A stretch of 64,000 nt of DNA from Syntrophales bacterium (GTDB taxonomy: Bacteria; Desulfobacterota; Syntrophia; Syntrophales; PHBD01): NCBI GenBank assembly GCA_963668175.1, contig OY764159.1, positions 320,001 through 384,000 on the forward strand, in the 5' to 3' direction. Under the pieces are notes generated by a model. The model saw nothing but the letters and a program-made list of their open reading frames with translations. It had not been told where the DNA came from and searched no databases. A program made the position numbers and the translations under genes. Shown piece by piece: positions 29,046-51,716 of the stretch (the stretch's first letter is position 1; each line of letters opens with the position of its first letter).

Positions 29046-29153
29046 AGATCGTCCTCGGCATGCTCTGATGGCAAAGGGCTGGCAACTGGACACCTCCTCT
29101 TCGGAAGCTGTAATGTCTTGATAAAGTGAGATAATTTAAGACGTGTCCGAATA

Positions 29154-29338: not shown

Positions 29339-30106
29339 TCACGGGCGTTTGATAGCCTTGATGAGAAGGACTGCGGCCAGCCCCCGGGGCATGATCCTGG
29401 CGTCAAGCCATACGAAAACTCCGTAGATGCGGTTGATCCATTTAGACATAGATATGACGGCCGCGGGAAGACGCTTGCTTCTATTGTCTTTACCATCACC
29501 TTTCGCCAACTGCTGAAGCGCGGCATAGACATAAACGACGAGCAACATGGTCAGTTTTTCCAGGGGCCCCAAGACTTTTCGGATAATCAAAGGATCGAGA
29601 CCGGCCGCCTGTAAATTGCTCACCATCTCGGCCAATTCATATCGACGCAGATGTCGGACAAACCGGTCGTCAGCACCATAGTAGAAACGACGGTGTGGGA
29701 AAGTCACAATGAGGTTTCCCGAGGGTGCCAAAACTCGGGCGATCTCCCGCATCACTGATCGGTCATCGCTTATATGTTCCATGACTTCCGAACAGACAAC
29801 CTGGGCAAAGGACCCGTCCTTGAAGGGAAGCATTGTACCGTCGGCAGCGACAAACCGGTTGCCGATTTGCGTCGTTTTCAGCTCCCGCAGGGCCGACCAT
29901 GATAAATCGGAATAAACGACGGAACGAATGCGGGTGATCATGGGCGAGAGACCGCTGCCCACCTCCAGAATCGGCTTCCCGCTGTTTTTCGCCACGAATT
30001 TATTAATATCTCGTTTTCTCAGGAAATAATTATAGAGGTGATTTTTTAAGGCTACATATCGATGATCATCGAAAAAATCCTGAAAGCGATTTTTATTGTT
30101 TGACAT
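29339..30106 (-). CDS. Class I SAM-dependent methyltransferase
   Basis: ILEVGSG, LPFKDGSFAQVVCSEVMEHI, EIARVLAPSG, HLRRY. Start ATG 30106 overlaps the GT2 stop (TAATG). Confidence 0.85.
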   Translation of the reverse strand: MSNNKNRFQDFFDDHRYVALKNHLYNYFLRKRDINKFVAKNSGKPILEVGSGLSPMITRIRSVVYSDLSWSALRELKTTQIGNRFVAADGTMLPFKDGSFAQVVCSEVMEHISDDRSVMREIARVLAPSGNLIVTFPHRRFYYGADDRFVRHLRRYELAEMVSNLQAAGLDPLIIRKVLGPLEKLTMLLVVYVYAALQQLAKGDGKDNRSKRLPAAVISMSKWINRIYGVFVWLDARIMPRGLAAVLLIKAIKRP

Positions 30107-30858
30107 TAGCGGATGCCCGGAAACAGGTTTGATGAAGTGAGCTTCATCCGGGACAAACGAAAAAGGAGAGACGTCCACAGGCAGCCCATGCCGTAGATCA
30201 TACTGCGCCGGAGATTGATCGATGAGGCTTCGGCAAAATACTTCGTCGGACAACTCACTTCGGCAATCGTGTAGCCGAACCAGATAATCTGGGCCAGCAT
30301 TTGATTATCAAAGACAAAATCATCGGAATTCTGATCAAGCGGCAATTTTTCCAGAAGCTGCCGGGAGAAGGCCCGATAGCCCGTATGATATTCTGAGAGT
30401 TTAGCACCAAGCATAATATTTTCTGTCAGAGTGAGAAGGCGATTGGAAATGTACTTCCACAGCGGCATGCCCCCTTTGAGGGCATAGCCGCCAAGAATCC
30501 GGGACCCCAGAACGCATTCATAAAGACCGTTTCCAATCAGGGAGGCCATGGCGGGAATTAGCATCGGCGTATATTGATAATCGGGATGTACCATCACGAC
30601 GATATCAGCCCCTTCTTTCAGGGCCAATTCATAGCATGTCTTTTGATTTCTCCCGTAACCGCTGTTACGTTCGTGAACGTGGACCAGCGTATGGTCGAGT
30701 TCCCCGGCAATGGCGGCGGTATTATCAGAACTGGCATCATCGACGAGAATTACCATATCGACAATGCCCTGCGCCATGACTTCAGCATACGTTTTCTTGA
30801 GGGTCTGCGCCGCATTATAGGCCGGCATGACCACAATAACTTTCTTATCCTTATACAT
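30106..30858 (-). CDS. GT2 glycosyltransferase (DPM1/polyprenyl-phosphate sugar synthase-like)
   Basis: [43 protein letters not shown]. Confidence 0.88.
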
Positions 30859-31180
30859 AATATGATGATTTCCGGGGATTAAAATATGAACCGATCATTC
30901 CCAAAGGAACATGATCCTTTTCTTATTTCTCTAAAAGAGATATCATAGATTCTCTCTAGGGTCGATGACTTATCGACGACTTCTCGCTTGCAACAGATGT
31001 ATTACCATGTTATCTTCTCTGTGTTACATTAAATGAAATCATATATTGTTATTAATCTGACGTTATACTTTTACATCAATAAAATCTCAACCGATTTTGC
31101 TGCGACGGAATAAAAGCGACCAATGGCGGTCCTACTGGGAGAAGTCGCCCGGTACAGGGAATTAAAACACAGATGATAAA

Positions 31181-32698
31181 ATGATGTTTTCCATGCATTT
31201 ACAAAGTTTCCGTTCCGACAATCCGCGCTTCAGAACCTATCTATTGTATGGATTGGTCGCCGCCGGCACAATAGCCCTGATATTGGGACGCATGACAGAA
31301 ACGCTGGCCGATCCCGATTTATGGGGTTATTTGACATTCGGAAGACTTTATTGGAATAATGACGGATTCCCCTACCACGATCCCTACGCCTACACGCCGA
31401 TCAAGGCCTTCTGGATATACCACGAATGGCTCACCGGGGTGTTATTCCATCCATTATACAAATACGTAGGCTCTTTCGGATTACAGGGACTCAAATATAT
31501 CATCGGCTTGATGACCGCTTTCACCATCTTCAAAACCGCCCGGAACCGCCGGGCATCCAGGGAGGCTTCCGCCGCTTCCCTCATCTTAATAAGCCCTCTG
31601 TTCAGTTTTGCCTACTCACCCGTCAGAGCCCAGATTTTCACCAATCTATTTTTTGCCTTGACCCTTTATATCCTGGAACGGGCCGGTCGAGAGAACCGTT
31701 CACGCCATATCTGGTGTTTGATACCCATGTATCTGCTATGGTCAAATCTCCATGGGGGTGTTGTCGCCGGCCTCGGTATTATAGGACTGTATGCTGCAGG
31801 CAAAGCCCTGGCAGGGGAAAAGTCTTTGCCGTATTGGCTTGCCCTGGCGGCCGCAGTCTTCGTGACACTCATTAATCCCTACGGCCTGGAATACTGGCTT
31901 TACCTAAAGGACGCTCTACTCATGCCCCGGCCGGACATCGACGAGTGGCACTCCGTCTTCGCCGCGCTGCGAAACGGTGAGTCGACAGCCAATCATCTTG
32001 TCTTTCTCCTTCTTTTCTTTTTGGCCGCCTTGATGTTGGCGCTGCTGCGCAACCGCCGGACAACCGACATTCTTGTACTTACGGCGACTTCTCTTATGGC
32101 CTTTCAGCACGTCCGGCACGAAAGCCTGTTCTTCATCGCCATGGGCTGTTACGGGCCATGCTATTTCACGCAGGCATGGGACATCATGAAAACATCCTCG
32201 GCACGGGCGGAATTCTGGAGTAATTCGGTCCGGCGCATCGCACCGGTTCTGTTCTTGGTTCTTCTTATCGTTTTCGGAGCCCGGTTTGTGACCGGACACC
32301 CCTTCGACTTGACGCTTCGCTCCCCGAACAAAGAGAAGGCGGTCGATTTCAACTATCCCACGGGTGCCGTAAATTTCATCCGCGATAATCATCTAAAGGG
32401 CAATATCCTGACCGAATTCAGTTGGGGTGAATTCATCATCTGGAACCTGCCCGAAAGCCGAGTCGCCATGGACGGGCGATACGAAACGCTCTACACGGAA
32501 GAGGCAACCCGCGAGTATTTTCGCTTCACGAAAGGCGAGACCGTCTGGCGGGATTATCTTCTCAAGTATCGCCACGATCTTATCCTTTTCCGCCCGGACA
32601 GCATCGTCAGTGATATGCTGAGCAGGGACCCTGGCTGGGTGAAAATATATGCCGATGCCGACTGTATTTTGTTTATCCGAAGGAAAATCCCGTCATGA
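31181..32698 (+). CDS. Polytopic membrane protein, putative GT-C glycosyltransferase (paralogue 1)
   Basis: Many TMs; DPDLWGYL in first loop, HEWL, RAQIFT, WSNLHGG, INPYG; soluble C-terminal FSWGEF...MDGR. Confidence 0.6.
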   Translation: MMFSMHLQSFRSDNPRFRTYLLYGLVAAGTIALILGRMTETLADPDLWGYLTFGRLYWNNDGFPYHDPYAYTPIKAFWIYHEWLTGVLFHPLYKYVGSFGLQGLKYIIGLMTAFTIFKTARNRRASREASAASLILISPLFSFAYSPVRAQIFTNLFFALTLYILERAGRENRSRHIWCLIPMYLLWSNLHGGVVAGLGIIGLYAAGKALAGEKSLPYWLALAAAVFVTLINPYGLEYWLYLKDALLMPRPDIDEWHSVFAALRNGESTANHLVFLLLFFLAALMLALLRNRRTTDILVLTATSLMAFQHVRHESLFFIAMGCYGPCYFTQAWDIMKTSSARAEFWSNSVRRIAPVLFLVLLIVFGARFVTGHPFDLTLRSPNKEKAVDFNYPTGAVNFIRDNHLKGNILTEFSWGEFIIWNLPESRVAMDGRYETLYTEEATREYFRFTKGETVWRDYLLKYRHDLILFRPDSIVSDMLSRDPGWVKIYADADCILFIRRKIPS

Positions 32699-33924
32699 AA
32701 CAGCGCCACGCCGACACGCCCTTGCGGTTGCATGTTCTAACGACTCGGCAGATCGGTATGATCATGTCGGCGGCGGCCTTGGTCATGATGTTCTGGTTTT
32801 GTGCATCGACGTTACCTCTTTCATTTAACGGGGAGCGGCCGAACGATTTTCCCAATTATTATGTCGCCGGCCTCCGACTGTTTGAGGAGCGCCCTATTTA
32901 TGAACCGCTGGAAGCGGAAGTATTCCACCGCCTGGGTTTTGCCCATTATCCGACCAACATCGCCGACACGCCGGCAACGGTCGTCCTGCTTGCCCCTTTG
33001 TCACGATTGACCTATCGAGCCGCTTTTTTCACATTATACTTTTTTTCTCTCCTGTCCGTTCCGCTGTTAACCTATTATGCGGGAAGATATCTAGGAATGA
33101 CATTCTGGGAAGCGGTCTGTGCCGTTTCGTTGTTGACCTTCAGTAACCACTATCGCTTTCTCCTCCTCTGCAATCATATGGAGTCTATTCTTCTTCTGTG
33201 CCTGACCTTTGGCTGGATATACCTCAAAAAAGACTGGGATCGCACCGGCGGTTTCTTTTGGGGTTTGGCTGCGGCATTGAAACTCATTCCGGGCCTACTG
33301 CTGTTCTTGCTGATGCTTTCCCGCTGGAAACGGGCAGCCTTGACCGGTATCATTGCAGCCGCCGTCCTGCTCGCCCTTGCCGGCGTCACGATCGGTCGAG
33401 CCGATTCTTTCGCCTACATCATTCAGGTTATTCCACAGTCTCAACAATGGTACGGTCATGACGGTAACTTCTCTCTTATGTCCATCGGTTATCGTCTGGG
33501 CGGCCTGACCGTCGGATGGACGTTGACCATCGCGGCAGTTATCGTCATTACCGTTCTCGCGTTTAAGAACAGGGACAATAAAGATTGTATTTTTGCAGTG
33601 GGGACGGCCGGCATGCTTATAATCAGTCCTCTTTCCTGGTTGGGATACGGCATTCTTCTCATTCCCGTCCTTCTTCTCTTATTTACAAAACTCGACCGGA
33701 AGACATCGCGTCTGAACGTATGGATATTCATAACAGCGTTGGTGCTGACTCAGTATTGGCCTTTTCAATCCAAACCAATGATAAGTTCCATGATCGAATT
33801 TCTGTTATTCACGATTCCCCCTGTTTGCGGGTATACATTGGTTATATTTCTTGCCTGTCGATTACTGGACGTTGAACCGACTCGGGTAGTAACGGAAATC
33901 TCACCGGAAAGGACGGCCGCCTGA
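32695..33924 (+). CDS. GT87/DUF2029-like membrane glycosyltransferase
   Basis: NDFPNYY, LKLIP, NFSL, SPLSW motifs with about 10 hydrophobic segments; ATGA-coupled to upstream gene. Confidence 0.7.
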   Translation: MKQRHADTPLRLHVLTTRQIGMIMSAAALVMMFWFCASTLPLSFNGERPNDFPNYYVAGLRLFEERPIYEPLEAEVFHRLGFAHYPTNIADTPATVVLLAPLSRLTYRAAFFTLYFFSLLSVPLLTYYAGRYLGMTFWEAVCAVSLLTFSNHYRFLLLCNHMESILLLCLTFGWIYLKKDWDRTGGFFWGLAAALKLIPGLLLFLLMLSRWKRAALTGIIAAAVLLALAGVTIGRADSFAYIIQVIPQSQQWYGHDGNFSLMSIGYRLGGLTVGWTLTIAAVIVITVLAFKNRDNKDCIFAVGTAGMLIISPLSWLGYGILLIPVLLLLFTKLDRKTSRLNVWIFITALVLTQYWPFQSKPMISSMIEFLLFTIPPVCGYTLVIFLACRLLDVEPTRVVTEISPERTAA

Positions 33925-33926
33925 CC

Positions 33927-35396
33927 TTGAAAATACCGAAAATGCATTGGGGAGCCTTGTTGACGATCGCCGGCTTTTCAGCCTACTTTCTCGGCCGCTT
34001 TGTTAATATCCTTGCGGACTACGACCTGTGGGGCTACCTCGCCTTCGGAAGGCTCTTCTGGGAAAACGGTTTCCCTTACTGTGACGTCTTCTCCTATGTC
34101 CCGACGAACAACGTATGGGTCTACCACGAATGGCTGACCGGCGTGATTTTCTTTCCGATTTATGAACGATTCGGATCGGAAGGGCTGCAATTGCTGCGTT
34201 ATGCCGTTATGATGGCGACCTTGGCGTTCATGGTCAGCGCTGCCCTCAGGCGCAACGGCAATAAATTGGCCATAGGAATTGCCTTATTCCTGTCAGGAAA
34301 CGGCCTCACATACGGCTATGCCCCGGTAAGGGCCCAGGTCTTCACTTACCTGTTTTTCGCCTTCTTCATCTATATTCTCGAACGCTATAAAGGAGAGCGC
34401 AAGCCCTACCTTCTCTGGTTTCTGCCTATTCTCGAAATCGTCTGGTGTAACGTTCACGGCGGTTTTGTAGCCGGACTTGGTCTTATTGCTCTTTATGCGC
34501 TCGGCGAGGGGCTCGCGCGGCGGCCATTCACGCCCTACCTAAAAATAGCGCTCGTAACCGTCCTGGCAACACTTGTGAACCCTTATGGCTTCTCCTACTG
34601 GATATTTATCATCCAGGCCGTCACCCTGCCCCGTGCGGACATTACGGAATGGATGTCTGTCCCTTCCGCAATCGCAAGCGGCAATTATCGCGACGAGACG
34701 ATCCTCTTCGCCGCTCTTTTGCTCATCACGGTTTTTCTGATGGTCAGATCAAGAAAGAAGAATCCTACCGATATCCTCGTTCTGGCCGTTACGGCTTTTC
34801 TCGGATTCAAGTCTATCCGCCACATCATCCTCTTTTTCCTGGTTTTCGGCGCTTACGTGCCGGCGCTTATGTCAGAGTATATGGATTCCCTGAAAAGAGA
34901 CCCCAAAGTGGCGTCCACATTAAACAGGGTCCGTAAACCCGTCTTGCTGCTCTTAAGCCTGATCTTTCTGTGTCTCGCGGCGCTGTCATTCCGGCATTTT
35001 ATATTCAGTCCTCGTTTCGCCTTGGTAACGCCGGCGCATTCCTATCCGATTCGGGCTCTCGAATGGATCGACGCCAACCGCTGGCAGGGCAATATCATCC
35101 CCAACTTTGAATGGGGCGAGTATGTCATATGGCGAACTTACCCCCGCTGCCGCGTATCAATGGACGGCCGCTTGGAAACGGTGTACGGCACAGAGCTGCA
35201 AAAGGAATATTTCGATTTCCTTCATGGGAGGGCCGGCTGGCAGATATTTCTGAAGAAATATGCTCATGATATGGTCCTTATTAGAAAAGGTTCAAGGACC
35301 GACAGCCTTATGAGAGAACAACAGGACTGGCGGTTGGCGTATGAAGACGGTCTGAGCGTAATTTTTCTTCGCGCAGCGAGGCAGATCACCCGATGA
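33927..35396 (+). CDS. Polytopic membrane protein, putative GT-C glycosyltransferase (paralogue 2)
   Basis: Same motifs as 31181-32698: DYDLWGYLAFGR, HEWLTG, RAQVFT, WCNVHGG, VNPYG, FEWGEY...MDGR. Confidence 0.6.
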   Translation: MKIPKMHWGALLTIAGFSAYFLGRFVNILADYDLWGYLAFGRLFWENGFPYCDVFSYVPTNNVWVYHEWLTGVIFFPIYERFGSEGLQLLRYAVMMATLAFMVSAALRRNGNKLAIGIALFLSGNGLTYGYAPVRAQVFTYLFFAFFIYILERYKGERKPYLLWFLPILEIVWCNVHGGFVAGLGLIALYALGEGLARRPFTPYLKIALVTVLATLVNPYGFSYWIFIIQAVTLPRADITEWMSVPSAIASGNYRDETILFAALLLITVFLMVRSRKKNPTDILVLAVTAFLGFKSIRHIILFFLVFGAYVPALMSEYMDSLKRDPKVASTLNRVRKPVLLLLSLIFLCLAALSFRHFIFSPRFALVTPAHSYPIRALEWIDANRWQGNIIPNFEWGEYVIWRTYPRCRVSMDGRLETVYGTELQKEYFDFLHGRAGWQIFLKKYAHDMVLIRKGSRTDSLMREQQDWRLAYEDGLSVIFLRAARQITR

Positions 35397-35414
35397 GGCT
35401 GTTTTTTTAAAGAC

Positions 35415-37283
35415 ATGGATAATGGCGGATTGATAAAAAAACTTGACCTCATCATCAGGTCAAGGACAGACCGGCATCTTGTTTTGCTCGGTCTGTTTGT
35501 TATGGCCTTGACGGTCAAGATCGCGATCTTCCTTCTCTTAACGGACCCTATCATCTTCAGCAAATATCCTTACTTCGCCGAAAGGATTGTTCAGGGCCTC
35601 GATATCGGGGAAAGGCTGGTCGATCTCAGCCCGGCTTATTTATACATCAACGTTATTTTTTACAGAGTATTCGGACCTGATTGGCAATTGCTGACTATCT
35701 TTCAAGTTCTCGTCGGCAGTATGACTTGCGTGATCGTTTTCACCATCGGCGAGAGATTATTTAACCAATCCGTCGGGATCATCGGAGCTGTCATCCTCGC
35801 CCTTTACGGCAACCTTACCCTGATCGAGTTGACACTGGAGCCCGAAACATTTGTCCTCTTTTTCAATTCACTGGCCGTCCTGTCTCTCATCCTGGCGCAA
35901 AATGACCCTTTTTGGAGGCAATGTTCCACTAAAAATGTGATTGAAACCGCAGACAGGAATGGGGTTGGCATCATACACGGGCGGATACCGATCATGGCCG
36001 GGCTTCCATGGAAGTGGTTTGCGGCCGGAATGCTCCTCGGCCTGTCGGTCATCACCAAGCCCAACGCTTTGCTTGTGATCCCCGGAGCCCTTATTTGGAT
36101 CTGGTGGAATAAAATTTCGGTCAATAGAAGGTTAATGGCAACCGTATCCCTGCTGCTCGGCTCAGCATTGCTGATTTCGCCGGTGACATTGCGAAACTAT
36201 ACTAAATTCCATGATGTCATCCTGGTCAGCGCTGACGGCGGCAAGGTCTTTTTCCACGGCAACGGCCCCGGGGCCACTGGCATGGACCGGGCGGATCTGC
36301 CTCATCAGGGATTCCTCGAAGAGGGACAAGCCGAACCTGATTACGCCCATAAGCTTTTCAGAAATACGGCGAGGACATTGAGCGGAAAATCTCTCAAACT
36401 GTCAGAGTGCTCAGAATATTGGTTCCGTTACACCCTAAATTACATGGCTGCTCATCCAATGGCCGCCTTTGTACTTGAGATTAAAAAATTCTGCTTTTTT
36501 TGGAATAACTATGAGGTCCACGATATCGACTCGAATTATAAGAATTATGTCACCATCCAATCCTGGCCGCTCATTCCTTTCGGAGCAATAGCTGCTTTGG
36601 GAATCATTGGCATGGTCATAGCACGTCAGCGTTTCAGGGACGTATTCCTGCTTTACTGGCTGGTTCTTGTTTATCTTGTTTCTGTTCTTGTCTTCTTTGC
36701 CGCTACCCGTTACCGCCTGCCGGCGGCTCCGTATCTTGCGATCTTTGCAGCTCTTGCACTCTACCACTTGTCGTCGCTAATAAGAGACAAGCAGTGGAAA
36801 AAATGCGGTGCTTACCTGATCTCCAGCGCGATTCTTGCCGCAGGCACCGTATTGCCCTTCCGGCACGATATTGCAAGATTTGACCGCTGGCAGCAAGCGT
36901 CGAGAATCCATTATTCTCTGGGCGGTATGATGTTCTTCAAGAAGGGGTTCTACAAGGAAGCTATCACTGAATTTCAACGCGCTTTAGCGATAGACCCGAA
37001 TTTTCTTCCAGCCTACAACTATCTTGGTAAATCTTACGCCATCCTCAACGATTATGCTCGCGCAGAAGAGGCCTTCATGAAGGTTATTCAGTCGGCGCCG
37101 ACTATCGATGAGGGTTATATGAATTTGGGGATGCTCTACGAGTTACAAGGCCGCATTCCTCAAGCGATCAAGTATCTCCAGGAGGCGCTTGCCATCAATC
37201 CCGGAAACGAAAAGGCTTTACGCCACCTGCAGGCTTTATCGGTCCAGCCGCAAGATCAGGCCCATCAGAGGAGTCAGAAATGA
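35415..37283 (+). CDS. GT39/PMT_2-like membrane glycosyltransferase with C-terminal TPRs
   Basis: SPAYLY, EPET, TKPN, PVTLRNY, RYRLP plus TPR repeats (ALAIDPN...YNYLG, YMNLG...ALAINPG). Confidence 0.7.
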   Translation: MDNGGLIKKLDLIIRSRTDRHLVLLGLFVMALTVKIAIFLLLTDPIIFSKYPYFAERIVQGLDIGERLVDLSPAYLYINVIFYRVFGPDWQLLTIFQVLVGSMTCVIVFTIGERLFNQSVGIIGAVILALYGNLTLIELTLEPETFVLFFNSLAVLSLILAQNDPFWRQCSTKNVIETADRNGVGIIHGRIPIMAGLPWKWFAAGMLLGLSVITKPNALLVIPGALIWIWWNKISVNRRLMATVSLLLGSALLISPVTLRNYTKFHDVILVSADGGKVFFHGNGPGATGMDRADLPHQGFLEEGQAEPDYAHKLFRNTARTLSGKSLKLSECSEYWFRYTLNYMAAHPMAAFVLEIKKFCFFWNNYEVHDIDSNYKNYVTIQSWPLIPFGAIAALGIIGMVIARQRFRDVFLLYWLVLVYLVSVLVFFAATRYRLPAAPYLAIFAALALYHLSSLIRDKQWKKCGAYLISSAILAAGTVLPFRHDIARFDRWQQASRIHYSLGGMMFFKKGFYKEAITEFQRALAIDPNFLPAYNYLGKSYAILNDYARAEEAFMKVIQSAPTIDEGYMNLGMLYELQGRIPQAIKYLQEALAINPGNEKALRHLQALSVQPQDQAHQRSQK

Positions 37284-39181: not shown

Positions 39182-39201
39182 TCATGTCCAAGGAGGAGGA
39201 A

Positions 39202-41133
39202 GTGCCTACATCCCGTGAGACAAAATACAATCTGATCTGTGTCCTCATTACGGTTCTTCTAATCGTGGCCGCCTATTCGAATACCCTGCGCGCGCCCTTT
39301 ATCTTTGACGACCAAGTCAATATCGCCGACAACATGTCCATCCGGAGCATGTGGCCGCCCTGGGAGCCTCTCTATGTCTCCCCAGACACGGGCATAACCG
39401 GAAGACCTTTAATCAACTTCACCTTCGCCCTCAACTATGCCGTCAGTGGCGACGATGTCTGGAGCTATCACGCCCTCAATATTATCATCCAAATCCTGGC
39501 GGCCCTGATTCTGTGGGGATTCATCAGGCGAACACTGGAACGTCAGCAACTCGACATCAACAAGACATGGCAACCGGCATGGGTTGCCCTCGGCTGCACA
39601 CTCGTGTGGGCTCTCCACCCCCTCCAGACCCAGGCTGTGACCTACCTGTCCCAGCGATGCGAATCCCTGATGGGGCTTTTCTTTCTCCTGGTCTTCTACT
39701 GTGCCGTCAGGGGCTGGCAATCAGACCGGCACCAGAGGGCGTGGCACCTGCTGGCCATTCTCTCCTTCGTTGCAGGAGCCGGCTGCAAGGAGGTGATCGC
39801 CGCCTCTCCCGTCCTTCTGTTCCTCTACGAATGGGTATTCACCAGAAGGAGTTGGAAAGACATACTGAAGACTTCCCCCTTGCTGTACTCGGGACTCGCG
39901 TTGGGTTTGGCCTGCGAACTCCTCCTCGTCGCCGCGGGAGGGACGACCTCAACCGGCACGGGTAATCATGCTTTTACTTTAACGGAATACTGGCTGACGC
40001 AGACTCCGGTGATTCTTCACTACATTCGGCTGGTCTTCTGGCCTTCCGATCTCGCTCTCGATTACGGCATGGATTTTCACGGCATGATCGAAACATGGCC
40101 GGCCCTTTTCATCGTCGCCGCCCTGATCGTCAGTTCTCTGTGGCTGTTGTACAGAAGACGGCCGGCAGGATTCTTGTCTGCCTGGTTCTTCGCCATCCTG
40201 GCCCCGACATCGCTGTTCCCCCTTCCCGACGTTGTTTTTGAGCACCGGATGTATCTTCCTTCCATGGCGGTCATCGTTTTGTCCATATGCTGCTTATATC
40301 GAATGGGGATCTTGATCTGTCGGCGGTTCGCTTTTTTGGACCCGCAAGACACTTTGATCAGGACCGGCAGATATGTCATGGTTTTACTCATTCTGACCGT
40401 GGCAATATCGACTTACGCCAGGAATCTTTACTACCAGTCGGCGCTCTCCATCTGGGCGGACAATGTCGCCAAGAGACCGCATTCGGCCGGGGCGCAGGTT
40501 AATTTCGGTAAAGCCCTCTCGGATGCAAATAGGCCGTTGGACGCCTTGCCCCATTTACGACAGGGAATCCATCTTATAGAAACGCAACAGGCAAAGGCTC
40601 GTCCGGAGACATTGCTCACGGCCTACAATAATACTGGTGCCGTGTATCTTCAACTTGGCCAATGGAAGGCCGCAGAATATTTTTTACGAAGATCGCTGCA
40701 AATCCAAACGAAAAGTATCTACGCTCGCGCCAGTGCTCATTCGAATTTAGGGATTACTTTATTCATGCTCAAGAAAAGCGATGAAGCCGGTGAGCATTTT
40801 CGTCAGGCCATTCTGCTTAGACCGAATTTCGCCAACGGTCATGCCAATTACGGAGCTTTTCTTCGCGCACAGGGAAATACAAAAGAAGCGACGGATCATT
40901 TCCAAGTTGCCCTTCAATTGAAACCCGATCATATCGAGGCCAACGATGCCATGGGCACGATTATGTACCAACGCAGTCAATATCGAGAAGCCAGGGCCTA
41001 TTTCGAGAAATCGCTGGCTTCAAAAGCAGACAACGCATATGCCCGCAACATGTTGATCGAAATCGACAAAAGAGACGGGGTAACGGGAAGCCCTTCAAAG
41101 AAACCTTCATCATATCCAAGGAGAATGAAGTGA
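39202..41133 (+). CDS. TMTC-like GT-C/TPR protein (copy B)
   Basis: Same motifs as copy A. GTG 39202 preferred over ATG 39184 because of the AAGGAGG RBS and homology to copy C's GTG start. Confidence 0.75.
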   Translation: MPTSRETKYNLICVLITVLLIVAAYSNTLRAPFIFDDQVNIADNMSIRSMWPPWEPLYVSPDTGITGRPLINFTFALNYAVSGDDVWSYHALNIIIQILAALILWGFIRRTLERQQLDINKTWQPAWVALGCTLVWALHPLQTQAVTYLSQRCESLMGLFFLLVFYCAVRGWQSDRHQRAWHLLAILSFVAGAGCKEVIAASPVLLFLYEWVFTRRSWKDILKTSPLLYSGLALGLACELLLVAAGGTTSTGTGNHAFTLTEYWLTQTPVILHYIRLVFWPSDLALDYGMDFHGMIETWPALFIVAALIVSSLWLLYRRRPAGFLSAWFFAILAPTSLFPLPDVVFEHRMYLPSMAVIVLSICCLYRMGILICRRFAFLDPQDTLIRTGRYVMVLLILTVAISTYARNLYYQSALSIWADNVAKRPHSAGAQVNFGKALSDANRPLDALPHLRQGIHLIETQQAKARPETLLTAYNNTGAVYLQLGQWKAAEYFLRRSLQIQTKSIYARASAHSNLGITLFMLKKSDEAGEHFRQAILLRPNFANGHANYGAFLRAQGNTKEATDHFQVALQLKPDHIEANDAMGTIMYQRSQYREARAYFEKSLASKADNAYARNMLIEIDKRDGVTGSPSKKPSSYPRRMK

Positions 41134-42040
41134 TAAAATCCGTTGAGAGAAAGCACGCTCTGGTCTGTGTCCTCGTTACGGTTCTTCTAATCGTGGCCGC
41201 CTATTCGAATACCCTGCGCGCGCCCTTCATCTTTGACGACCGAGTCAATATCGCCGACAACATGTCCATCCGGAGCATGTGGCCGCCCTGGGAGCCTCTC
41301 TATGTCTCCCCAGACACGGGCATAACCGGAAGACCTTTAATCAACTTCACCTTCGCCCTCAACTATGCCGTCAGTGGCGACGATGTCTGGAGCTATCACG
41401 CCCTCAATATTATCATCCAAATCCTGGCGGCCCTGATTCTGTGGGGATTAATAAGGCGAACACTGGAACGGCAGCAACTCGACATCAACAAGACATGGCA
41501 ACCGGCATGGGTTGCCCTCGGCTGCACACTCGTGTGGGCTCTCCACCCCCTCCAGACCCAGGCTGTGACCTACCTGTCCCAGCGATGCGAATCCCTGATG
41601 GGGCTTTTCTTTCTCCTGGTCTTCTACTGTGCCGTCAGGGGCTGGCAATCAGACCGGCACCAGAGGGCCTGGCACCTGCTGGCCATCCTCTCCTTCGTTG
41701 CAGGAGCCGGCTGCAAGGAGGTGATCGCCGCCTCTCCCGTCCTTCTGTTCCTCTACGAATGGGTATTCACCAGAAGGAGTTGGAAAGACATACTGAAGAC
41801 TTCCCCCTTGCTGTACTCGGGACTCGCGTTGGGTTTGGCCTGCGAACTCCTCCTCGTCGCCGCGGGAGGGACGACCTCAACCGGCACGGGTAATCATGCT
41901 TTTACTTTAACGGAATACTGGCTGACGCAGACTCCGGTGATTCTTCACTACATTCGGCTGGTCTTCTGGCCTTCCGATCTCGCTCTCGATTACGGCATGG
42001 ATTTTCACGGCATGATTGAAACATGGCCGGCCCTTTTCAT
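39236..42040 (+). repeat. Near-identical direct repeat, 39236-40112 vs 41164-42040 (877 bp, offset 1928)
   Basis: Read by eye with roughly ten mismatches. Shorter blocks are shared between copies A and B: 37571-37966/39493-39888, 38144-38310/40066-40232, 39059-39204/40987-41132. Confidence 0.92.
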
Positions 42041-43028
42041 TGTTGCTGCTTTGCTTCCTGTCTCTCTATGGCTTCTGTATAGGCGACAGCCGACGGGATT
42101 TTTGTCCGCCTGGTTCTTCATCATCCTGTCCCCGACATCGCTGTATCCTCTGCCCGACGTAATTTACGAGCATCGCATGTATCTGCCATCCATAGCGATC
42201 GTCGTCCTGGCCACAGGCGGGTTATATCAAATCATTCGCCTGGCAAGCGAGCATTTCATTCCAGGTGTCGCTGCCCGGCGAGTTATTTTAAACAAATCCG
42301 GCCAATATGTCTTGACCCTGCTTATTCTGGCCGTGGCGGTGTCGACCTATGCCAGGAATCTCTACTATCAAGCAGATGTTTCCATCTGGGCGGATAATGT
42401 AGCCAAAAGGCCACAATGCGCCAGAGCACACGTCAATTTAGGGAATGCGCTTTCTGTCATTGGAAGGCCTGTCGATGCCATCCGCCACTTTCAACAGGCT
42501 ATCTCTCTTATAAAATCGCAAGGCATGAGAACCAATTCTCAGAGTCTTATCAACGCTTACAGCAATATGGGTGTTGCTTATCTTCAACTCGAGCAATGGA
42601 AGTCGGCGGAATACTATTTCCGGAAAGCTCTCCAGATTTGGCCGAATAGCGCCCATGCACATACGAATTTAGGTAGGGCTTTATTAATGCTGAAACAAAA
42701 CGATGAAGCCTTTTTTCACTTTCAACAGGCAATTTTAATCAAGCCCCATTATGCCGATGCTCAAGCCAATTATGGTGTCTTCCTTAATGAACAAGGAAAT
42801 TCTGAAGAGGCGATGGTTCATTTTCAGACCGCTCTTCAGGTCATGCCAAAACATGTTGAAGCCAATAACGGCATGGGCACTGTCATGTATCGACGGGGGC
42901 TGTACCCTGCGGCTCGAAACTATTTTAATAAAGTCCTTGAGGTGAGACCGAATCACGAATTCGCACGCAACATGTTGATCGAGCTTGACAAGAAGTCAGA
43001 CAATGGGAGAGAAAGAACAGGTAGATAA
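41130..43028 (+). CDS. TMTC-like GT-C/TPR protein (copy C)
   Basis: Same motifs; GTGA overlap with the copy B stop. Confidence 0.75.
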   Translation: MIKSVERKHALVCVLVTVLLIVAAYSNTLRAPFIFDDRVNIADNMSIRSMWPPWEPLYVSPDTGITGRPLINFTFALNYAVSGDDVWSYHALNIIIQILAALILWGLIRRTLERQQLDINKTWQPAWVALGCTLVWALHPLQTQAVTYLSQRCESLMGLFFLLVFYCAVRGWQSDRHQRAWHLLAILSFVAGAGCKEVIAASPVLLFLYEWVFTRRSWKDILKTSPLLYSGLALGLACELLLVAAGGTTSTGTGNHAFTLTEYWLTQTPVILHYIRLVFWPSDLALDYGMDFHGMIETWPALFIVAALLPVSLWLLYRRQPTGFLSAWFFIILSPTSLYPLPDVIYEHRMYLPSIAIVVLATGGLYQIIRLASEHFIPGVAARRVILNKSGQYVLTLLILAVAVSTYARNLYYQADVSIWADNVAKRPQCARAHVNLGNALSVIGRPVDAIRHFQQAISLIKSQGMRTNSQSLINAYSNMGVAYLQLEQWKSAEYYFRKALQIWPNSAHAHTNLGRALLMLKQNDEAFFHFQQAILIKPHYADAQANYGVFLNEQGNSEEAMVHFQTALQVMPKHVEANNGMGTVMYRRGLYPAARNYFNKVLEVRPNHEFARNMLIELDKKSDNGRERTGR

Positions 43029-43040
43029 AGGGAATTCAAC

Positions 43041-44465
43041 ATGAAAGTATTGCTTATTTATCCGCCCATCACCATGTGGGAGCGCTATTCGTCGGATATC
43101 GGACACGCGGGAGGGCGGCAGTTGCCCCTCGGCATTTTTTATCTGGCATCCTACATCAGGAGCAAGGGTCACGAAGTGTGTGTCATCGATGCGGAAGCGC
43201 AACAAAAGACGGTTGCCGATCTGGTGGCCATCGCAAGTCAATTTCACCCCGATGCCGTAGGCATCAGTGCCACCACCGTCGCATTCCCCCGGGCCATTCA
43301 GGTTGCCGAGGCTATCAAAGAACAGTTAGGCGATATTCCGATCATTTTGGGCGGCCCCCATGTGACGGCGGCAGCCGAGGATGCGATGTCTCATCCGTCC
43401 GTCGACCTAGCCGTCATGGGCGAAGGAGAAGTCACGCTGACCGCTCTGCTCGAAACCCTGGACAAGGGAGGCGACTTGTCCACCCTCGATGGAATTGTCT
43501 TCCGTCGCAACGGACAGGTGGTTTCGACGCCTCGTCACCCCTATATCGATGATATCGACAATATACCGTTTCCCGCCTACGACCTGGTGCCGGACATGAC
43601 CCTCTACAATCCGCCGCCGGCCAATTACAAAGCCTTGCCCATCGCCAACATTATCACCAGCCGCGGCTGCCCGAATCAATGCACCTTCTGCGACCGCTCG
43701 GTTTTCGGCCAGAAATTACGACTCCGGAGCCCTGAAAACATCGCTGCGGAAATCGAAATGCTTTACCGGCAATACCATGTCCGGGAAATCGCGTTCGTGG
43801 ACGACACGTTTACACTACGTCCCGACCACATTATTGAACTATTTAAAATCCTTGACGAAAAAAACATCCACTTCCCATGGACATGCATGAGCCGTATCAA
43901 CACGGTCGATCATGACATATTGAAATTCATGAAGGAGCATGGATGCTGGCACATTTCTTTTGGCATCGAATCCGGCAGCGACGAGATACTGAAACTGATC
44001 AAAAAGAAGATATCTCTGAAAAGAGCCGCGGAGATTATCGCCATATGCAGCAATCTTCATATCCGGACAAAAGGCTTTTTCATCGTTGGTCATCCCGGGG
44101 AAACTGCCGACACCATCGAGCAGACGATTCGGTTGGCTCTCGGACTCCCTCTCGACGATGTCGTTGTTACACTCAATACACCCTTACCGGGAACAGAACA
44201 GTATGAGGCGGCCGCAGATTTCGGGACACTGGGCATGTTGGATTGGTCAACTTTCAACATGTGGAATCCCGTCTTTGTTCCCAGAGGACTTTCCCGGGAA
44301 TTCCTAATTTCGAAACACAAGGAGTTCTATCGCCGGTTTTATCTGAGACCCCGGATCGTGGCCAGGTACCTGCTGAGTTTTTTGTCCGCATCGGGTATCC
44401 GCCGTTTTTTTGCACTATTGCAGAGCCTACCGTTTCTCCTGCAAACCAGAAAAGGAAAACGGTAG
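43041..44465 (+). CDS. Cobalamin-binding radical SAM enzyme (class B methyltransferase-like)
   Basis: PLGIFYLAS and GGPHVT B12-binding region, TSRGCPNQCTFC, FVDDTF, GIESGS, PLPGT. Confidence 0.88.
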   Translation: MKVLLIYPPITMWERYSSDIGHAGGRQLPLGIFYLASYIRSKGHEVCVIDAEAQQKTVADLVAIASQFHPDAVGISATTVAFPRAIQVAEAIKEQLGDIPIILGGPHVTAAAEDAMSHPSVDLAVMGEGEVTLTALLETLDKGGDLSTLDGIVFRRNGQVVSTPRHPYIDDIDNIPFPAYDLVPDMTLYNPPPANYKALPIANIITSRGCPNQCTFCDRSVFGQKLRLRSPENIAAEIEMLYRQYHVREIAFVDDTFTLRPDHIIELFKILDEKNIHFPWTCMSRINTVDHDILKFMKEHGCWHISFGIESGSDEILKLIKKKISLKRAAEIIAICSNLHIRTKGFFIVGHPGETADTIEQTIRLALGLPLDDVVVTLNTPLPGTEQYEAAADFGTLGMLDWSTFNMWNPVFVPRGLSREFLISKHKEFYRRFYLRPRIVARYLLSFLSASGIRRFFALLQSLPFLLQTRKGKR

Positions 44466-44567
44466 CCGCTACGGATCAAAAGCTTCAGACCTGCTATTGA
44501 AAGGGAATGCAAAGCGTCTTTTCATGCTGTTCTCTCTCATGGCTTCGGAAAAGGAGTGAATGAAAAA

Positions 44568-45584
44568 ATGGGAATCGAAAATCGAAACCTCGCCGTCGTG
44601 ATCCCGGCTTACAAAGCGGAAGCGACAATTTCGGCCGTCGTGGACCTGATCCCATCGTATGTCGATTGGATCGTTATCGTCAATGACGCCTCGACGGACA
44701 GAACGCAGGAAGTTGTCGAGCGTATTCGCGATCCCCGCATTCATTTGATCAACCATCAAAAGAATCAGGGAGTCGGTGGGGCCATGCTCTCCGGTTTCAA
44801 AAAGGCAGTGGACCTCGGTGCGGATATCATTGCCAAGCTCGATGCGGACGGTCAGATGGATCCCCGGTTTCTGGATCGTTTCGCTCTCACGGCGATCCGC
44901 TACCAATGCGACTACGTCAAGGCCAACCGCTTCGGCCACATCGAGGCCCTTCCCGCCATGCCCAAAATCCGGCTGGCCGGAAATCTTCTCCTCACGTTTT
45001 TAACCAAATGGGCGTCCGGCTACTGGAACGTCTTCGATCCTCAAAACGGCTATGTGATGATTACCCGAAGAATGATCAAACGCCTTGATTTTACAAAAAT
45101 AGATAAGAGCTATTTCTTTGAAAACAGTATGCTCATCAACCTGAATATTTTAAGGGCCCAAATCGGCGAAATTTACCTTCCGGCCCTTTACGGTGAGGAG
45201 GTGTCCTCCATGCGGTTGGGAAGAATCATCAAGGATTTTCCCGTGAAACTGATGCGCGGCTATTTGCATCGCATCTACCAGAAATACATCTTCCGGAGCC
45301 TCTCTCCGTTTATCTTTCTTTTCCTCTTCGGAATTCTGTCCACGGCTTGGGGCTGTGCATGGGGCGGCGTCGCCTGGTGGAAGTCCTATTTCACCGGAAC
45401 ACCGGCGACCACCGGCACAGTCATTCTTGCCCTGCTACCCCTTCTCTTAGGCTGGACGGCCCTGCTGCAGGCATTCATTCTGGATGTTCAGGATGCGGGC
45501 CCTTGCTTACTCTTCGATCACGATGACGAAACATTAAAATCGGTTGAAAGGAACGAATCCGATCGTTTAAGAAATCGGGGATGA
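44568..45584 (+). CDS. GT2 glycosyltransferase with two C-terminal TMs (GtrB/DPM-like)
   Basis: VIPAYK, VNDASTD, NQGVG, KLDADGQMDP (DxD), DPQNGY; hydrophobic C-terminal helices. Start is 44556 (GTG) or 44568 (ATG). Confidence 0.85.
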   Translation: MGIENRNLAVVIPAYKAEATISAVVDLIPSYVDWIVIVNDASTDRTQEVVERIRDPRIHLINHQKNQGVGGAMLSGFKKAVDLGADIIAKLDADGQMDPRFLDRFALTAIRYQCDYVKANRFGHIEALPAMPKIRLAGNLLLTFLTKWASGYWNVFDPQNGYVMITRRMIKRLDFTKIDKSYFFENSMLINLNILRAQIGEIYLPALYGEEVSSMRLGRIIKDFPVKLMRGYLHRIYQKYIFRSLSPFIFLFLFGILSTAWGCAWGGVAWWKSYFTGTPATTGTVILALLPLLLGWTALLQAFILDVQDAGPCLLFDHDDETLKSVERNESDRLRNRG

Positions 45585-45614
45585 TTCGACCCTATTCCGT
45601 CGGTTTTATAAAAT

Positions 45615-45643
45615 AAAAAAGGGGGCAAGTAAACTTGCCCCCT
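45615..45643 (-). terminator. Rho-independent terminator of pilA
   Basis: Hairpin AGGGGGCAAGT-aa-ACTTGCCCCCT followed by a U-run on the minus strand; lies between convergent genes. Confidence 0.8.
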
Positions 45644-45667
45644 GCATAAAAACCGGTTACGTTATCG

Positions 45668-46039
45668 TTACGGTGCTGAGGTGATGACGCCGGCCGAGTC
45701 GATGGTGAACGTCTTGGGACCGCTTGCATGTTTCGCAGTGATGGTACCCGCACTCTGACCCATGGCAGGAGTTACCGCGACATCCGTCGTCTGGTTAAAC
45801 CCGTAGGACTTCAAATTATCCAGAGTCGGCGTGCCAGCGGGATTGTCCGAGAAATAGGCCTGCGCCGCTGTATAGGCATTCTTGACGTCCGCATTGGCGG
45901 AAGCATTGTAGCCTCTCTGCCTGTAAGCCGTAAACTGCGGGATGGCGATGGCAGCCAGAATACCGATGATCGCGATGACGATCATGAGTTCGATCAACGT
46001 GAAACCTTTCTGTCCTCTCTTGTGAAACGCTCTAATCAT
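45668..46039 (-). CDS. pilA: Type IVa major pilin
   Basis: Reverse complement of 46039 onward reads ATGATTAGAGCG..., so the gene is on the minus strand (ORF track strand label is wrong). Class III leader [27 protein letters not shown] with E5; RBS AAGGAG. Confidence 0.93.
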
Positions 46040-46207
46040 ATTTTTTCTCCTTTATTTAAAGTATATTATTTCTTATTCATTGAAAACCGCATAAAACTTC
46101 TATCTCTTCCCAAATCACCTCCTTTTCTGATCGTTCGTTTTACGATGGTTTCCTTTTCAAACGAATTTGAATTTCAAAGTCTCTTGTATCGGACGTTAAT
46201 GACCGTT

Positions 46208-46223
46208 TGCAACCCGTGTGCCA
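46208..46223 (-). promoter_or_regulatory. sigma54 (RpoN) -24/-12 promoter of pilA
   Basis: Minus strand TGGCAC-ACGGG-TTGCA is an exact consensus match about 170 bp upstream of pilA. Confidence 0.85.
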
Positions 46224-46467
46224 CGCTCTCCCGCGGCACAACATATTCATGAATTTATCTTTACATATAGATACTTGCGATTTCGCAACCATTCACGTTG
46301 CACGCAGAGGCTGATATGGGTTGGTCCTTAAATCCGGTGATTTTCACCGCTCACTGTTTTTTTCACGACTTTTTCATGAAACACGGGCGGAGCTCACGAC
46401 TTTGTGATATTGATCTTCCCATTGCATATCGTGATACCGTAGCGAGAGAACGTGAACATTGTAAATC

Positions 46468-48339
46468 ATGATAAACACTTATATACATCACGCTTTCACC
46501 CTTCTGCTCATGATCGTTTTGAGCGGGGTTGCTGTTGGGACCGGCACCATCTTCTTGAACAGAATAAACGTTGCTTTCGCCGGCATCGCAGAGCGAATAT
46601 TTTATTCGCTGGGATTGGGATTGGCTGCCATGGCTTATGCAGTCTTCATCCTTTGCGCCCTACAAGCCATTTATCCGTCTGTTATTTATACTCTTATGGC
46701 CTTTTTTTCACTCGTTGGCCTGCCGGGTAGTCTGAATCTCATTAGACAGATCACACCCTCGCGCGCGTTGTCACACCAAGGTATATTAGAGAGTGGGGCC
46801 TTCATTCTTTTGGCAATAACCCTGGGTTCGCTGTTCCTCCTCGTTCTGACACCGGAAATCGGTAAAGACGCCCTCATCTATCACCTGGCCGTCCCAAAGC
46901 TCTTCATCGAACACCATGGCTTCTATTTCATCGAAGGCAACGCTTTCGCAAACTACCCTCTCTTCGGCGAGATGCTGTATATTATGGGATTGGTCCTCCA
47001 GGATGACATCCTGGCAAAAACCATCCATTTTATTCCCTTGTTAGCGATTCTCACGGGTACAGGGATATTCATCCATCAACGGTTCGGCAAAAGCGCTTTT
47101 CCTTATCTTACGCTCCTCATCTTCTTGTCCGTTCCATCTGTCTTCATAACAGCCCATATGGCCTATAATGATTTTTTCGTTACCTATTTCTGCTTAGCGG
47201 CGGTTCTTGCTTTCATCTCGTGGTCGGAACAAAATGGCGACGGATGGCTGATATTGTGCGGGCTATATTCGGGACTGGCTGTCGCCTGCAAATACACGGC
47301 CCTGCTGTTGCCTTTTCTGGGGGTGCTGGGCCTTCTCTGGAACGCCAGAAGCCGGAGCTTATCCACACGGGAAACCGTTCATATCCTTATTCTTTATGCG
47401 ATCAGCCTGATTCTGGCCGGCAGTCCTTTCTACATCAAGAACTGGATCGTAACCGGCAATCCCGTTTATCCTTTTCTGTATAGCATCTTCGGCGGCGTGG
47501 GTTGGGATCCTGATCAGGCAAGGCTTTACGATATCTTCGTTCAAACGCTCGGCATGGGTAAAGAGGCGATAGATTATCTCCTCCTTCCCTGGAATGTGAG
47601 CCTCAGGGCAAAATTGGACAGTCCCCAATTCGACGGTATCCTGGGACCGGTTTTTCTGCTGACCCTGCCTTTCATTCTGGGCATACGCAAGCAGGGACGT
47701 GACTTCACGATCATCCTGATATATTGTGCCTGCATGCTGATCTTCTGGGCTGCTTCCGTCCATCAGATCCGCTACCTGTTCCCGGTCCTGCCGATGCTAT
47801 GCATCACGATAGCTTATATTCTTTCTTACTATAAGGATCGCAAGTCCGTATCGGCCGTCCTTTTTATCCTTGTTGCCATCTCTCTGATCTATAATTTTTA
47901 TTACATCGCACAGGATTTCCGGAAAATAAGGCCCCTCGGCGTCGTTTCCGGAATGGAAAAACGGACCGATTTTCTAAAGCGCACAATCCCCGTATACGTT
48001 ATGTACGACTACATCAACCGCGAACTGCCGCCCGATGCGAAAGTCTATCTCGTCTTCATGAAAAATTACGGTTTTCTCTGCGATCGCACATTTTATGCCG
48101 ATGCGATGTTTGAATCATACACCCTTCAGAAGATTCTCTCGATCTCTCGAAATGGACAGGAAGTCAACGAAGCGTTTAAGAAAAAAGGGGTCACCCATAT
48201 CCTGTACGACGCCCATTATGTTACCGGGGACCTGAGCACGCTGTCGCCTCAGGAAAAACGTCTTTTTACATCTTATCGGAACGAATACCTGAACTTTATC
48301 GCAGGAGATAAGTCTTATCTTCTGTACGTTTTAAAATAA
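46468..48339 (+). CDS. Polytopic membrane protein, putative GT-C (PMT_2/ArnT-like) glycosyltransferase
   Basis: More than 10 TMs; DALIYHL, NYP, KYT, PFYIKNWIVTGNPVYPF, IRYLFP; divergent from pilA. Confidence 0.6.
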   Translation: MINTYIHHAFTLLLMIVLSGVAVGTGTIFLNRINVAFAGIAERIFYSLGLGLAAMAYAVFILCALQAIYPSVIYTLMAFFSLVGLPGSLNLIRQITPSRALSHQGILESGAFILLAITLGSLFLLVLTPEIGKDALIYHLAVPKLFIEHHGFYFIEGNAFANYPLFGEMLYIMGLVLQDDILAKTIHFIPLLAILTGTGIFIHQRFGKSAFPYLTLLIFLSVPSVFITAHMAYNDFFVTYFCLAAVLAFISWSEQNGDGWLILCGLYSGLAVACKYTALLLPFLGVLGLLWNARSRSLSTRETVHILILYAISLILAGSPFYIKNWIVTGNPVYPFLYSIFGGVGWDPDQARLYDIFVQTLGMGKEAIDYLLLPWNVSLRAKLDSPQFDGILGPVFLLTLPFILGIRKQGRDFTIILIYCACMLIFWAASVHQIRYLFPVLPMLCITIAYILSYYKDRKSVSAVLFILVAISLIYNFYYIAQDFRKIRPLGVVSGMEKRTDFLKRTIPVYVMYDYINRELPPDAKVYLVFMKNYGFLCDRTFYADAMFESYTLQKILSISRNGQEVNEAFKKKGVTHILYDAHYVTGDLSTLSPQEKRLFTSYRNEYLNFIAGDKSYLLYVLK

Positions 48340-48458: not shown

Positions 48459-48490
48459 TGGCATAGAGAATGGATTGGAACTTACAGAAA

Positions 48491-49638: not shown

Positions 49639-49641
49639 CCT

Positions 49642-51714: not shown

Positions 51715-51716
51715 CC

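Follow-up and report, generated by a model that had tools for sequence, protein, structure and literature searches.

A pilA-linked cassette of GT-C-type glycosyltransferases in a Syntrophales genome as a candidate system for pilin glycosylation

Why would eight putative membrane glycosyltransferases be encoded around the gene for one small pilin? The question is raised by a 13-gene region around pilA in the genome of a Syntrophales bacterium (assembly GCA_963668175.1, one contig of 4.57 Mb). The region occupies positions 29,339 to 48,339 of a stretch of 64,000 nucleotides, hereafter the window (contig OY764159.1, positions 320,001 to 384,000), and its 13 genes are intact open reading frames (ORFs). 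A preliminary description of the window had read it as a pilin-centred island for protein glycosylation of TMTC type. Our analysis favors, with a probability of about 0.6, an accessory, strain-variable cassette for periplasmic pilin glycosylation from polyprenyl-phosphate sugars, with PilA as the proposed acceptor.

The eight membrane proteins and their folds

All eight membrane proteins, here called A to H in gene order, were assigned to the GT-C class of glycosyltransferases: six by Pfam (B and D to H), C by its modelled fold, and A as a paralogue of C with 40% identity over 477 residues. Thus, the count of eight GT-C-type genes in the preliminary description was correct. Pfam also confirmed that they are accompanied by two GT2-family glycosyltransferases (GT2a and GT2b), a B12-binding radical S-adenosylmethionine (SAM) protein and a SAM methyltransferase. 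As whole proteins, D, G and H exceeded the Pfam cut-off for PMT_2. E and F fell just below it (25.8 and 24.7 bits vs. 26.1) and exceeded it in the genome-wide scan, where A gave a weak PMT_2 match (E 0.0014). No Pfam or NCBIfam family was assigned to A or C. Tetratricopeptide repeats (TPRs) were found by Pfam in D, E, F and G. The eight GT-C genes represent five families, since E, F and G, with 72-76% overall identity, are paralogues of recent origin.

Structure models were made for C, from an alignment of 120 sequences, and for the membrane domain of E; the GT-C calls of B, D and H rest on Pfam. The model of C (predicted local distance difference test, pLDDT, 92.7) has a GT-C fold, and its best matches were STT3B (Z 20.3, root-mean-square deviation 4.3, 451 residues aligned), PglB (Z 17.7) and DPY19 (Z 17.4), in agreement with Foldseek. 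The periplasmic domain alone matched the soluble domain of AglB (Z 7.8). The membrane domain of E (pLDDT 80.7) was also modelled as GT-C, with Pmt1/2 (Z 19.7) and AglB (18.4) followed by ALG12, STT3B and ArnT. In both lists, the first rows outside the GT-C clan fell under Z 6. No TMTC or TMEM260 chain was among the fold matches of E, which excludes nothing; searching the sequences of solved structures with E, A1 and A3 brought up nothing meaningful.

A and C belong to a family marked by the motif DxDLWG, for which 29,027 representatives (clusters at 50% identity) were found with E values up to 0.001. No Pfam family was shared by the 30 nearest Atlas clusters. The family occurred in 80 of the 251 genomes of our phylum sample, and no match to C was found in phages. 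D33 of C was conserved in 132 of 132 members and E241, which is not aligned with the Glu of TIXE, in 127. A profile alignment of the C family with 10 PglB homologues (from 11 loci, one being dropped for having no motif) paired NFEWG with WWDYG, DGR with DGG and R298 with the phosphate-binding Arg (E 1.6e-4, probability 50); of the two Trp positions, one varies across the family and the other is Phe in 98 of 132. A weak global alignment (probability 2.4) placed D33 on the loop-1 Asp and the PglB DXD in a gap. The Pfam model STT3 had no match in A, C or anywhere in the genome.

Compared with STT3, PglB and AglB (GT66) and DPY19 (GT98), C thus has the whole fold, membrane domain and periplasmic domain included. 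In contrast, it has ~490 residues rather than ~700, no WWD motif, no aligned DXD and ~10% identity. WWD serves in reading of the sequon, and the C family is unassociated with N-x-S/T sequons in pilins. Sequon N-glycosylation was accordingly rejected as evidence: sequons occurred in 11 of 19 pilins beside C-family genes vs. 24 of 35 others (p 0.55). DPY19 targets Trp; PilA has none, and DPY19-type C-mannosylation of PilA is therefore excluded. Judged from the model of C, A and C are compact proteins of the STT3/PglB/DPY19 fold without WWD rather than TMTC-like proteins, and C appears to resemble an oligosaccharyltransferase (OST)-fold transferase yet fails GT66 membership. This compact OST-fold family without a name, rather than the TMTC label, is the most interesting part of the locus.

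E, F and G consist of an N-terminal GT-C domain, with 8-9 transmembrane (TM) segments by an approximate hydropathy count, and a C-terminal TPR array. Their residues 25-360 are 87-96% identical (the catalytic part of F shares 89% identity with E and 96% with G), whereas the TPR part is 54-56% identical. This combination of near-identical catalytic domains and divergent TPR domains suggests one donor and different acceptor surfaces. The DNA is a mosaic of near-identical blocks: F and G are 97-100% identical over nucleotides 100-900, and E and F share blocks of 99% and 92% that G is without, a pattern that suggests tandem duplication with gene conversion. An assembly artefact was considered, and read depth speaks against it (50-55 in the unique parts, 62-67 in single-copy sequence, 98 in the shared piece). 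The reads may come from the sample behind the assembly itself, so that this support is not independent. The three copies look real.

The acids of the first loop are conserved in the E family (D36 in 40 of 40 members, D37 in 39), as is a Y-X6-P core (Y274 in 39, P281 in 40). E carries the TMTC motifs described in PMC7801869 (sections 6-7), namely DD in loop EL1 (D36-D37), Lys in EL3 (K196), Arg before TM10 (E347-H-R349) and DY in EL4 (D287-Y288), together with RP and HP..T.AV of the same set. Of the motif SHKSYRP, with its His and Lys, only RP is kept in E, F and G. Their matches to DUF1736 (13.3-13.8 bits, cut-off 27) were not significant, none of 33 E-family members matched it at E 0.1, and it was absent from the domains listed for the top 120 longer homologues among the matches listed. 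Four of the five sub-threshold DUF1736 matches in the genome were E, F, G and their nearest paralogue. In the phylum, 6 of 151 genomes held DUF1736 over the cut-off. The membrane domain of E matched the longest ORF at 7 of the 9 DUF1736 loci returned (E 6e-21 to 3e-8, motifs in register), namely all six full-length bacterial ORFs at or near the cut-off and one more; a eukaryotic DUF1736 cluster scored 0.91 in the Atlas. Motifs and transitive homology thus suggest that E, F and G are TMTC-like, which falls short of TMTC membership. No match to E was found in plasmids.

The genome holds eight more TMTC-like genes, four of them near 0.98 Mb (C1:980934-991202) and the others at 796713, 2290333, 3603992 and 4125412. 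One near 4.12 Mb sits inside a polysaccharide-type locus.

Linkage to pilin genes among relatives

A survey of 60 relatives took in all pilA matches at E 1e-20 or better, which gave 66 loci. Three weaker ones (L008, L015 and L020), first picked for their GT-C neighbours, were dropped. A gene of a cassette family lay within ~10 kb of pilA in 32 of the 66 loci and within 1.5 kb in 30; by genome the count was 31 of 46. The linkage to pilin that had been proposed for this window thus recurs in relatives. At 26 of the 32 linked loci, an E-family gene was found co-oriented directly downstream of pilA, in the position of tfpW, for which chance adjacency is near 1% (~230 E-family matches in ~170 Mb). 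H represents the family most tightly linked to pilA: 14 of its 18 homologues shared a contig with a pilin gene no more than 8 kb away, and three of the other four were on contigs shorter than 10 kb. The three closest relatives of D (in G011, G059 and G041) lay within ~6 kb of pilA on pilA-bearing contigs.

The C family was found near a pilin system at 32 of 80 loci, 15 with pilA and 17 with Flp/Tad, and never with both. In a phylum-wide sample, 18 of 40 loci stood near a pilus marker, vs. 1.3% of the 20-kb windows of this genome; the 40 were picked from the listed matches by score band and length of contig, and a few of them repeat earlier records. In a quick tree, C fell in a starred branch that held 15 pilA-linked rows and no Tad-linked ones. 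Another starred branch had 16 Tad-linked and no pilA-linked rows, and A was placed in a third small group. A and C thus lie in separate clades.

The gene content beside pilA was variable. Among 28 pilA loci beside queD-folE2-nadE, 22 hold cassette genes, in many different combinations, and the window has the largest set among the loci examined. At L025 and L135, pilA is directly followed by a tetR homologue, and L025 also keeps the acyl-CoA dehydrogenase and 3-hydroxyacyl-CoA dehydrogenase genes that flank the island here. This empty slot between pilA and tetR indicates that the island is an accessory fill of a fixed slot. The cassette is mobile-looking.

A membrane protein of 770-830 residues with 11-13 TM segments recurs in 11 pilA cassettes (L004, L021, L022, L024, L026-L030, L121 and L122), where its gene is often convergent to TPR genes. 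This family of ~780 residues matched no Pfam model, and its profile showed no similarity to those of the GT-C families. It was counted as a cassette family, and every locus holding it also holds an E-family gene. At four loci of the phylum sample (L192, L193, L197 and L208), longer DxDLWG members (open frames of ~740-800 residues) follow pilA directly and co-oriented, in the tfpW position. At L058 and L063, arrays of 2-5 Flp pilin genes are directly preceded by DxDLWG and GT87 genes in alternation, like the order A-B-C here. By eye and with no control set, Flp pilins directly downstream of a DxDLWG gene (L058, L063, L065, L067 and L100) mostly have an N-x-S/T sequon, and Flp pilins encoded at the distal end of a convergent tad operon (L053, L068, L107 and L113) mostly have none.

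Gene order, pilA and the putative donor enzymes

The features of the region are collected in Table 1. The methyltransferase and GT2a genes (29339-30858) and pilA lie on the minus strand; A to G, the radical SAM gene and GT2b (31181-45584), as well as H, lie on the plus strand. The plus-strand genes from 31181 overlap or nearly abut, as had been described, with successive gaps of -4, 2, 18, -4, 2, -4, 12 and 90 nucleotides. pilA is convergent with this operon of the 11-gene set, outside of which it lies, and divergent from H. The GC content of the island is mildly reduced (0.506, vs. 0.54 and 0.525 in the flanks).

Table 1. Features of the pilA region (positions in the window)
Feature	Position	Strand	Basis or remark
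Class I SAM methyltransferase, ~255 residues	29339..30106	-	Pfam Methyltransf_11 E 4e-14; longest ORF reaches 30253
GT2a, DPM1-like soluble GT2, 250 residues	30106..30858	-	PF00535 E 3e-21
A, DxDLWG-family GT-C, 505 residues, compact STT3/PglB/DPY19-like	31181..32698	+	40% identity to C
B, GT87-family GT-C, 409 residues, candidate chain-extending transferase	32695..33924	+	PF09594 E 3e-17
C, DxDLWG-family GT-C, 489 residues, STT3/PglB/DPY19 fold	33927..35396	+	Structure model
D, PMT_2-type GT-C with short TPR tail, 622 residues	35415..37283	+	PMT_2 E 2e-8, TPRs
E, TMTC/TfpW-like GT-C + TPR, 633 residues	37280..39181	+	Pfam, motifs, structure model
F, paralogue of E, 649 residues	39184..41133	+	Identity to E and G
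G, paralogue of E, 632 residues	41130..43028	+	Identity, motifs
B12-binding radical SAM protein, 474 residues	43041..44465	+	Pfam
GT2b, GT2 with two C-terminal hydrophobic segments, 342 residues	44556..45584	+	PF00535 E 1e-22, hydropathy
Terminator-like hairpin 3' of pilA	45620..45643	-	10-pair stem and T run; consensus match only
pilA, type IVa pilin, 123 residues	45668..46039	-	Proposed acceptor
Sigma-54-type -24/-12 motif, ~180 nucleotides upstream of pilA	46208..46223	-	Zero mismatches
H, GT-C with 12-13 TM segments, 623 residues, divergent from pilA	46468..48339	+	PMT_2 E 1e-7

H is followed by queD and folE2 (Pfam) and an ORF read as nadE. The left flank (23942-29093) holds genes for 3-hydroxyacyl-CoA dehydrogenase, acyl-CoA dehydrogenase and TetR, and the right flank (48470-54786) holds queD, folE2 and genes for NAD synthetase, alcohol dehydrogenase and CoA-transferase-like proteins; both flanks were partly read from ORFs.

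The terminator-like hairpin after pilA ranked best of 31 sites. The sigma-54-type motif upstream of pilA, scored against the -24/-12 consensus, was the sole match in the window; the chance mean is 1.4 at one mismatch or fewer, so that its position is the evidence. Such motifs were no marker of linkage, being present at 15 of 35 linked and 11 of 33 unlinked pilins, and a sigma-70 promoter scan was at chance level (24 vs. 20.9). Mature PilA has 111 residues, with 7 Ser, 13 Thr, no Trp and no Cys. A second pilA copy (C1:2273591-2274007, 77% identical) has its own sigma-54-type motif and no adjacent GT-C cassette. Two N-x-S/T sequons are present in PilA of the window and none in the second copy. 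Linked pilins were somewhat richer in Ser/Thr than unlinked pilins with long flanks (0.312, n = 33, vs. 0.258, n = 20). ORFs next to the second copy appear to encode a DNA methyltransferase and a Vsr-type endonuclease, and an E-family gene lies ~16 kb off. Further, 10 of the 111 residues of mature PilA are Phe or Tyr (9%). A content of ~9% is near the threshold once proposed for "electrically conductive" pili.

GT2a and GT2b are probable DPM1-like polyprenyl-phosphate-sugar synthases, as judged from their sequences, and the DPM1/GtrB-type donor synthases of the preliminary description are thus probably present. Their top NCBIfam matches were of polyprenyl-phosphate type, at 50-62 bits vs. cut-offs of 325-375; the nearest models to GT2a, namely AglJ, dolichyl-phosphate hexose transferase and PpgS, scored far under their cut-offs. 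C-family genes often have a DPM1-like GT2 gene immediately beside them, and in Smithella-type pilA loci a GT2b homologue directly follows the DxDLWG gene. The methyltransferase probably starts at 30106 (255 residues, as in its homologues), overlapping the GT2a stop, and is probably translationally coupled to GT2a; the same pair, with methyltransferase homologues of 255 residues, is found at pilA loci L002 and L011. The radical SAM protein, present at 9 of 80 DxDLWG loci, matched HpnJ best among NCBIfam models (238 bits, cut-off 578) and possibly tailors a sugar. At the Flp loci L058 and L063, too, DxDLWG genes are flanked by GT87 genes. By Pfam, the 13 genes include no flippase, no initiating phosphoglycosyltransferase and no GT4.

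Predicted pathway, alternatives and significance

Periplasmic pilin glycosylation would proceed as follows. GT2a and GT2b would transfer one monosaccharide, or two different ones, to undecaprenyl phosphate at the cytoplasmic face. The GT-C proteins, whose fold is established for C and E by modelling, would act at the periplasmic face on membrane-anchored pilin before its assembly. E, F and G, and probably D and H, may transfer single sugars onto Ser/Thr, like TfpW and the TMTCs; C and A may be further protein-directed transferases, O- or N-linked. B (GT87) may then extend the glycan, and the methyltransferase and radical SAM enzyme may tailor the sugar. By analogy, such a coat could mask or vary a phage receptor and stabilise the filament, and other periplasm-facing proteins may also be modified. 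According to one preprint, pilin glycosylation blocks phages (10.1101/150227).

The closest precedent is TfpW of Pseudomonas aeruginosa, the pilin D-arabinofuranosyltransferase of the group IV strains Pa5196 and PA7. As a preprint describes it, TfpW is a GT-C protein with 11 predicted TM segments, DDX in its first loop and TPRs in a periplasmic C-terminal domain, its gene lies directly after pilA, and it glycosylates Ser/Thr of pilin from a lipid-linked monosaccharide, as reconstituted in vivo (10.1101/2020.04.19.049825). By architecture and motifs, the E family is similar: it has DD, TPR and, in the corresponding loop region, the Y-X6-P core, and its gene occupies the tfpW position at the 26 loci noted above. 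Of YX6PFX7P in TfpW, however, the Phe and the second Pro are missing in E, F and G, and the family consensus has the second Pro one place earlier. Further, one enzyme acts there and eight of five families are present here, the donors here probably come from DPM1-like GT2s and not from the DPPR/DprE route, and E to G lie 2.6-8.4 kb from pilA on the opposite strand in this window. A GT-C protein with TPRs beside pilA is thus a known design, and TfpW gives the TMTC-type design on pilin a characterised bacterial precedent, which weakens the preliminary view that no biochemically characterised bacterial TMTC pathway was known. The concept of a pilA-linked GT-C with TPRs is not new; the enzyme families here appear untested.

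Animal TMTC1-4 (GT105, cadherin O-mannosyltransferases) share the GT-C + TPR architecture and most loop motifs with E, whereas E, F and G fail the DUF1736 cut-off and miss the His-Lys of SHKSYRP. Prokaryotic TMTC homologues are already mentioned in PMC7801869; background on TMTC and TMEM260 is also given in PMC11292533 and PMC10214176. In Candidatus Electrothrix, pilA is clustered with genes for a methyltransferase, TPR proteins and two glycosyltransferases, one of them annotated as a "phospholipid carrier-dependent glycosyltransferase" (PMC10580974, section 10); the likeness is one of annotation, and that section proposes no pilin glycosylation or mechanism. In a literature search that covered subscription papers thinly, no study was found that characterises TMTC-like enzymes from bacteria, the DxDLWG family or Syntrophales pilin glycosylation.

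Several observations weigh against a pilin-directed cassette. The support consists of genes, folds, motifs, linkage and an empty slot, and eight transferases seem many for a pilin of 111 residues. Kin among the surveyed genomes cannot be counted as independent, and since the family profiles derive from genes beside pilA, matches are more likely to turn up there. No cassette family was found at 34 of the 66 pilA loci, nor a pilin marker at 48 of 80 and 22 of 40 C-family loci, many of them on short contigs. The E family has 241 matches in 47 of 61 genomes, but only 62 E-family ORFs lie in the 66 pilA loci; 11 matches are in this genome and 3 at this locus. The eight copies elsewhere weaken the preliminary interpretation, and the claim of a TMTC-type system applies to three of the eight proteins, E, F and G, which are TMTC-like and below the DUF1736 cut-off. 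A GT2a/b homologue occurs in only 7 of the 32 linked loci, and no GtrA-family protein was found in the genome. The operon faces pilA, and the two are not co-transcribed here. The Ser/Thr difference is smaller when all 33 unlinked pilins serve as the control (0.312 vs. 0.289, p 0.04, kin not independent), and both pilA copies of this genome have equal Ser/Thr (0.26).

Part of this evidence would also fit a general glycosylation of envelope proteins, in which each TPR domain picks one of several clients and the pilA slot is mainly a hotspot of surface variation. Most E-family copies lie away from pilA, three divergent TPR domains stand on one catalytic core, the operon is opposite in orientation to pilA, and some C-family genes lie between housekeeping genes, e.g., cysS and uvrB. 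The direct, co-oriented adjacency at 26 of the 32 linked loci and the ties of the C family to two pilin systems in separate subclades argue against this explanation, which we consider unlikely. Transfer of a glycan en bloc is somewhat harder to credit. In that case, B, D and H would build a short lipid-linked glycan, or a pyrophosphate-linked oligosaccharide would come from another locus, and A and C would move it whole to pilin. The preliminary description had set the island apart from en-bloc systems. This distinction is not established, because A and C have an OST-like fold: the best structural matches of C, periplasmic domain included, are OSTs, the lipid-phosphate-binding Arg of PglB aligns with R298, and polymerisation before transfer is proposed in the TfpW preprint itself (10.1101/2020.04.19.049825). 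However, the 13 genes lack the flippase, initiating phosphoglycosyltransferase and GT4 of such a route, DPM1-like GT2s often directly adjoin C-family genes, the DXD of PglB has no counterpart in the alignment, and the DPY19 score is tied with that of PglB, DPY19 using Dol-P-Man according to the title of its structure entry.

Least probable, in our view, is that no protein is the acceptor and that the enzymes decorate lipid, lipopolysaccharide or exopolysaccharide in the manner of ArnT, GtrII or PimE. The GT87 and PMT_2 families include lipid-modifying enzymes, and the nearest model of the radical SAM protein, far below its cut-off, is the hopanoid-associated HpnJ. The GT-C fold by itself does not fix the acceptor, according to section 8 of PMC7801869. 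In contrast, four of the eight proteins carry TPR domains, the closest folds are protein-directed enzymes, the linkage to pilin is tight, and an arn-type operon (as read from ORFs) with the strongest PMT_2 match of the genome lies elsewhere, near 1.396 Mb of C1. Glycosylation of pilin remains our preferred reading.

A bolder version of pilin glycosylation, which we regard as doubtful, would make the DxDLWG family a minimal, sequon-independent branch of the STT3/PglB/DPY19 fold for type IV pilins, with PilA and Flp subfamilies. E, F and G would be working bacterial relatives of TMTC, whose acceptor range was reprogrammed by TPR divergence while gene conversion kept the catalytic domain unchanged. 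If so, one operon would assemble a pilus coat of several sugars through a number of independent transfers of lipid-linked monosaccharides, and the region would offer small bacterial models for TMTC and OST-fold chemistry.

The locus provides candidate pairs of enzyme and acceptor for two very large bacterial GT-C families, the TMTC-like proteins with TPRs, present in 47 of 61 related genomes, and the compact OST-fold proteins. A small pilin beside its presumed enzymes would be easy to reconstitute, as with TfpW. If the pili of syntrophic bacteria carry variable glycans, this would bear on the masking of phage receptors and on the practice of treating these pili as bare protein filaments.

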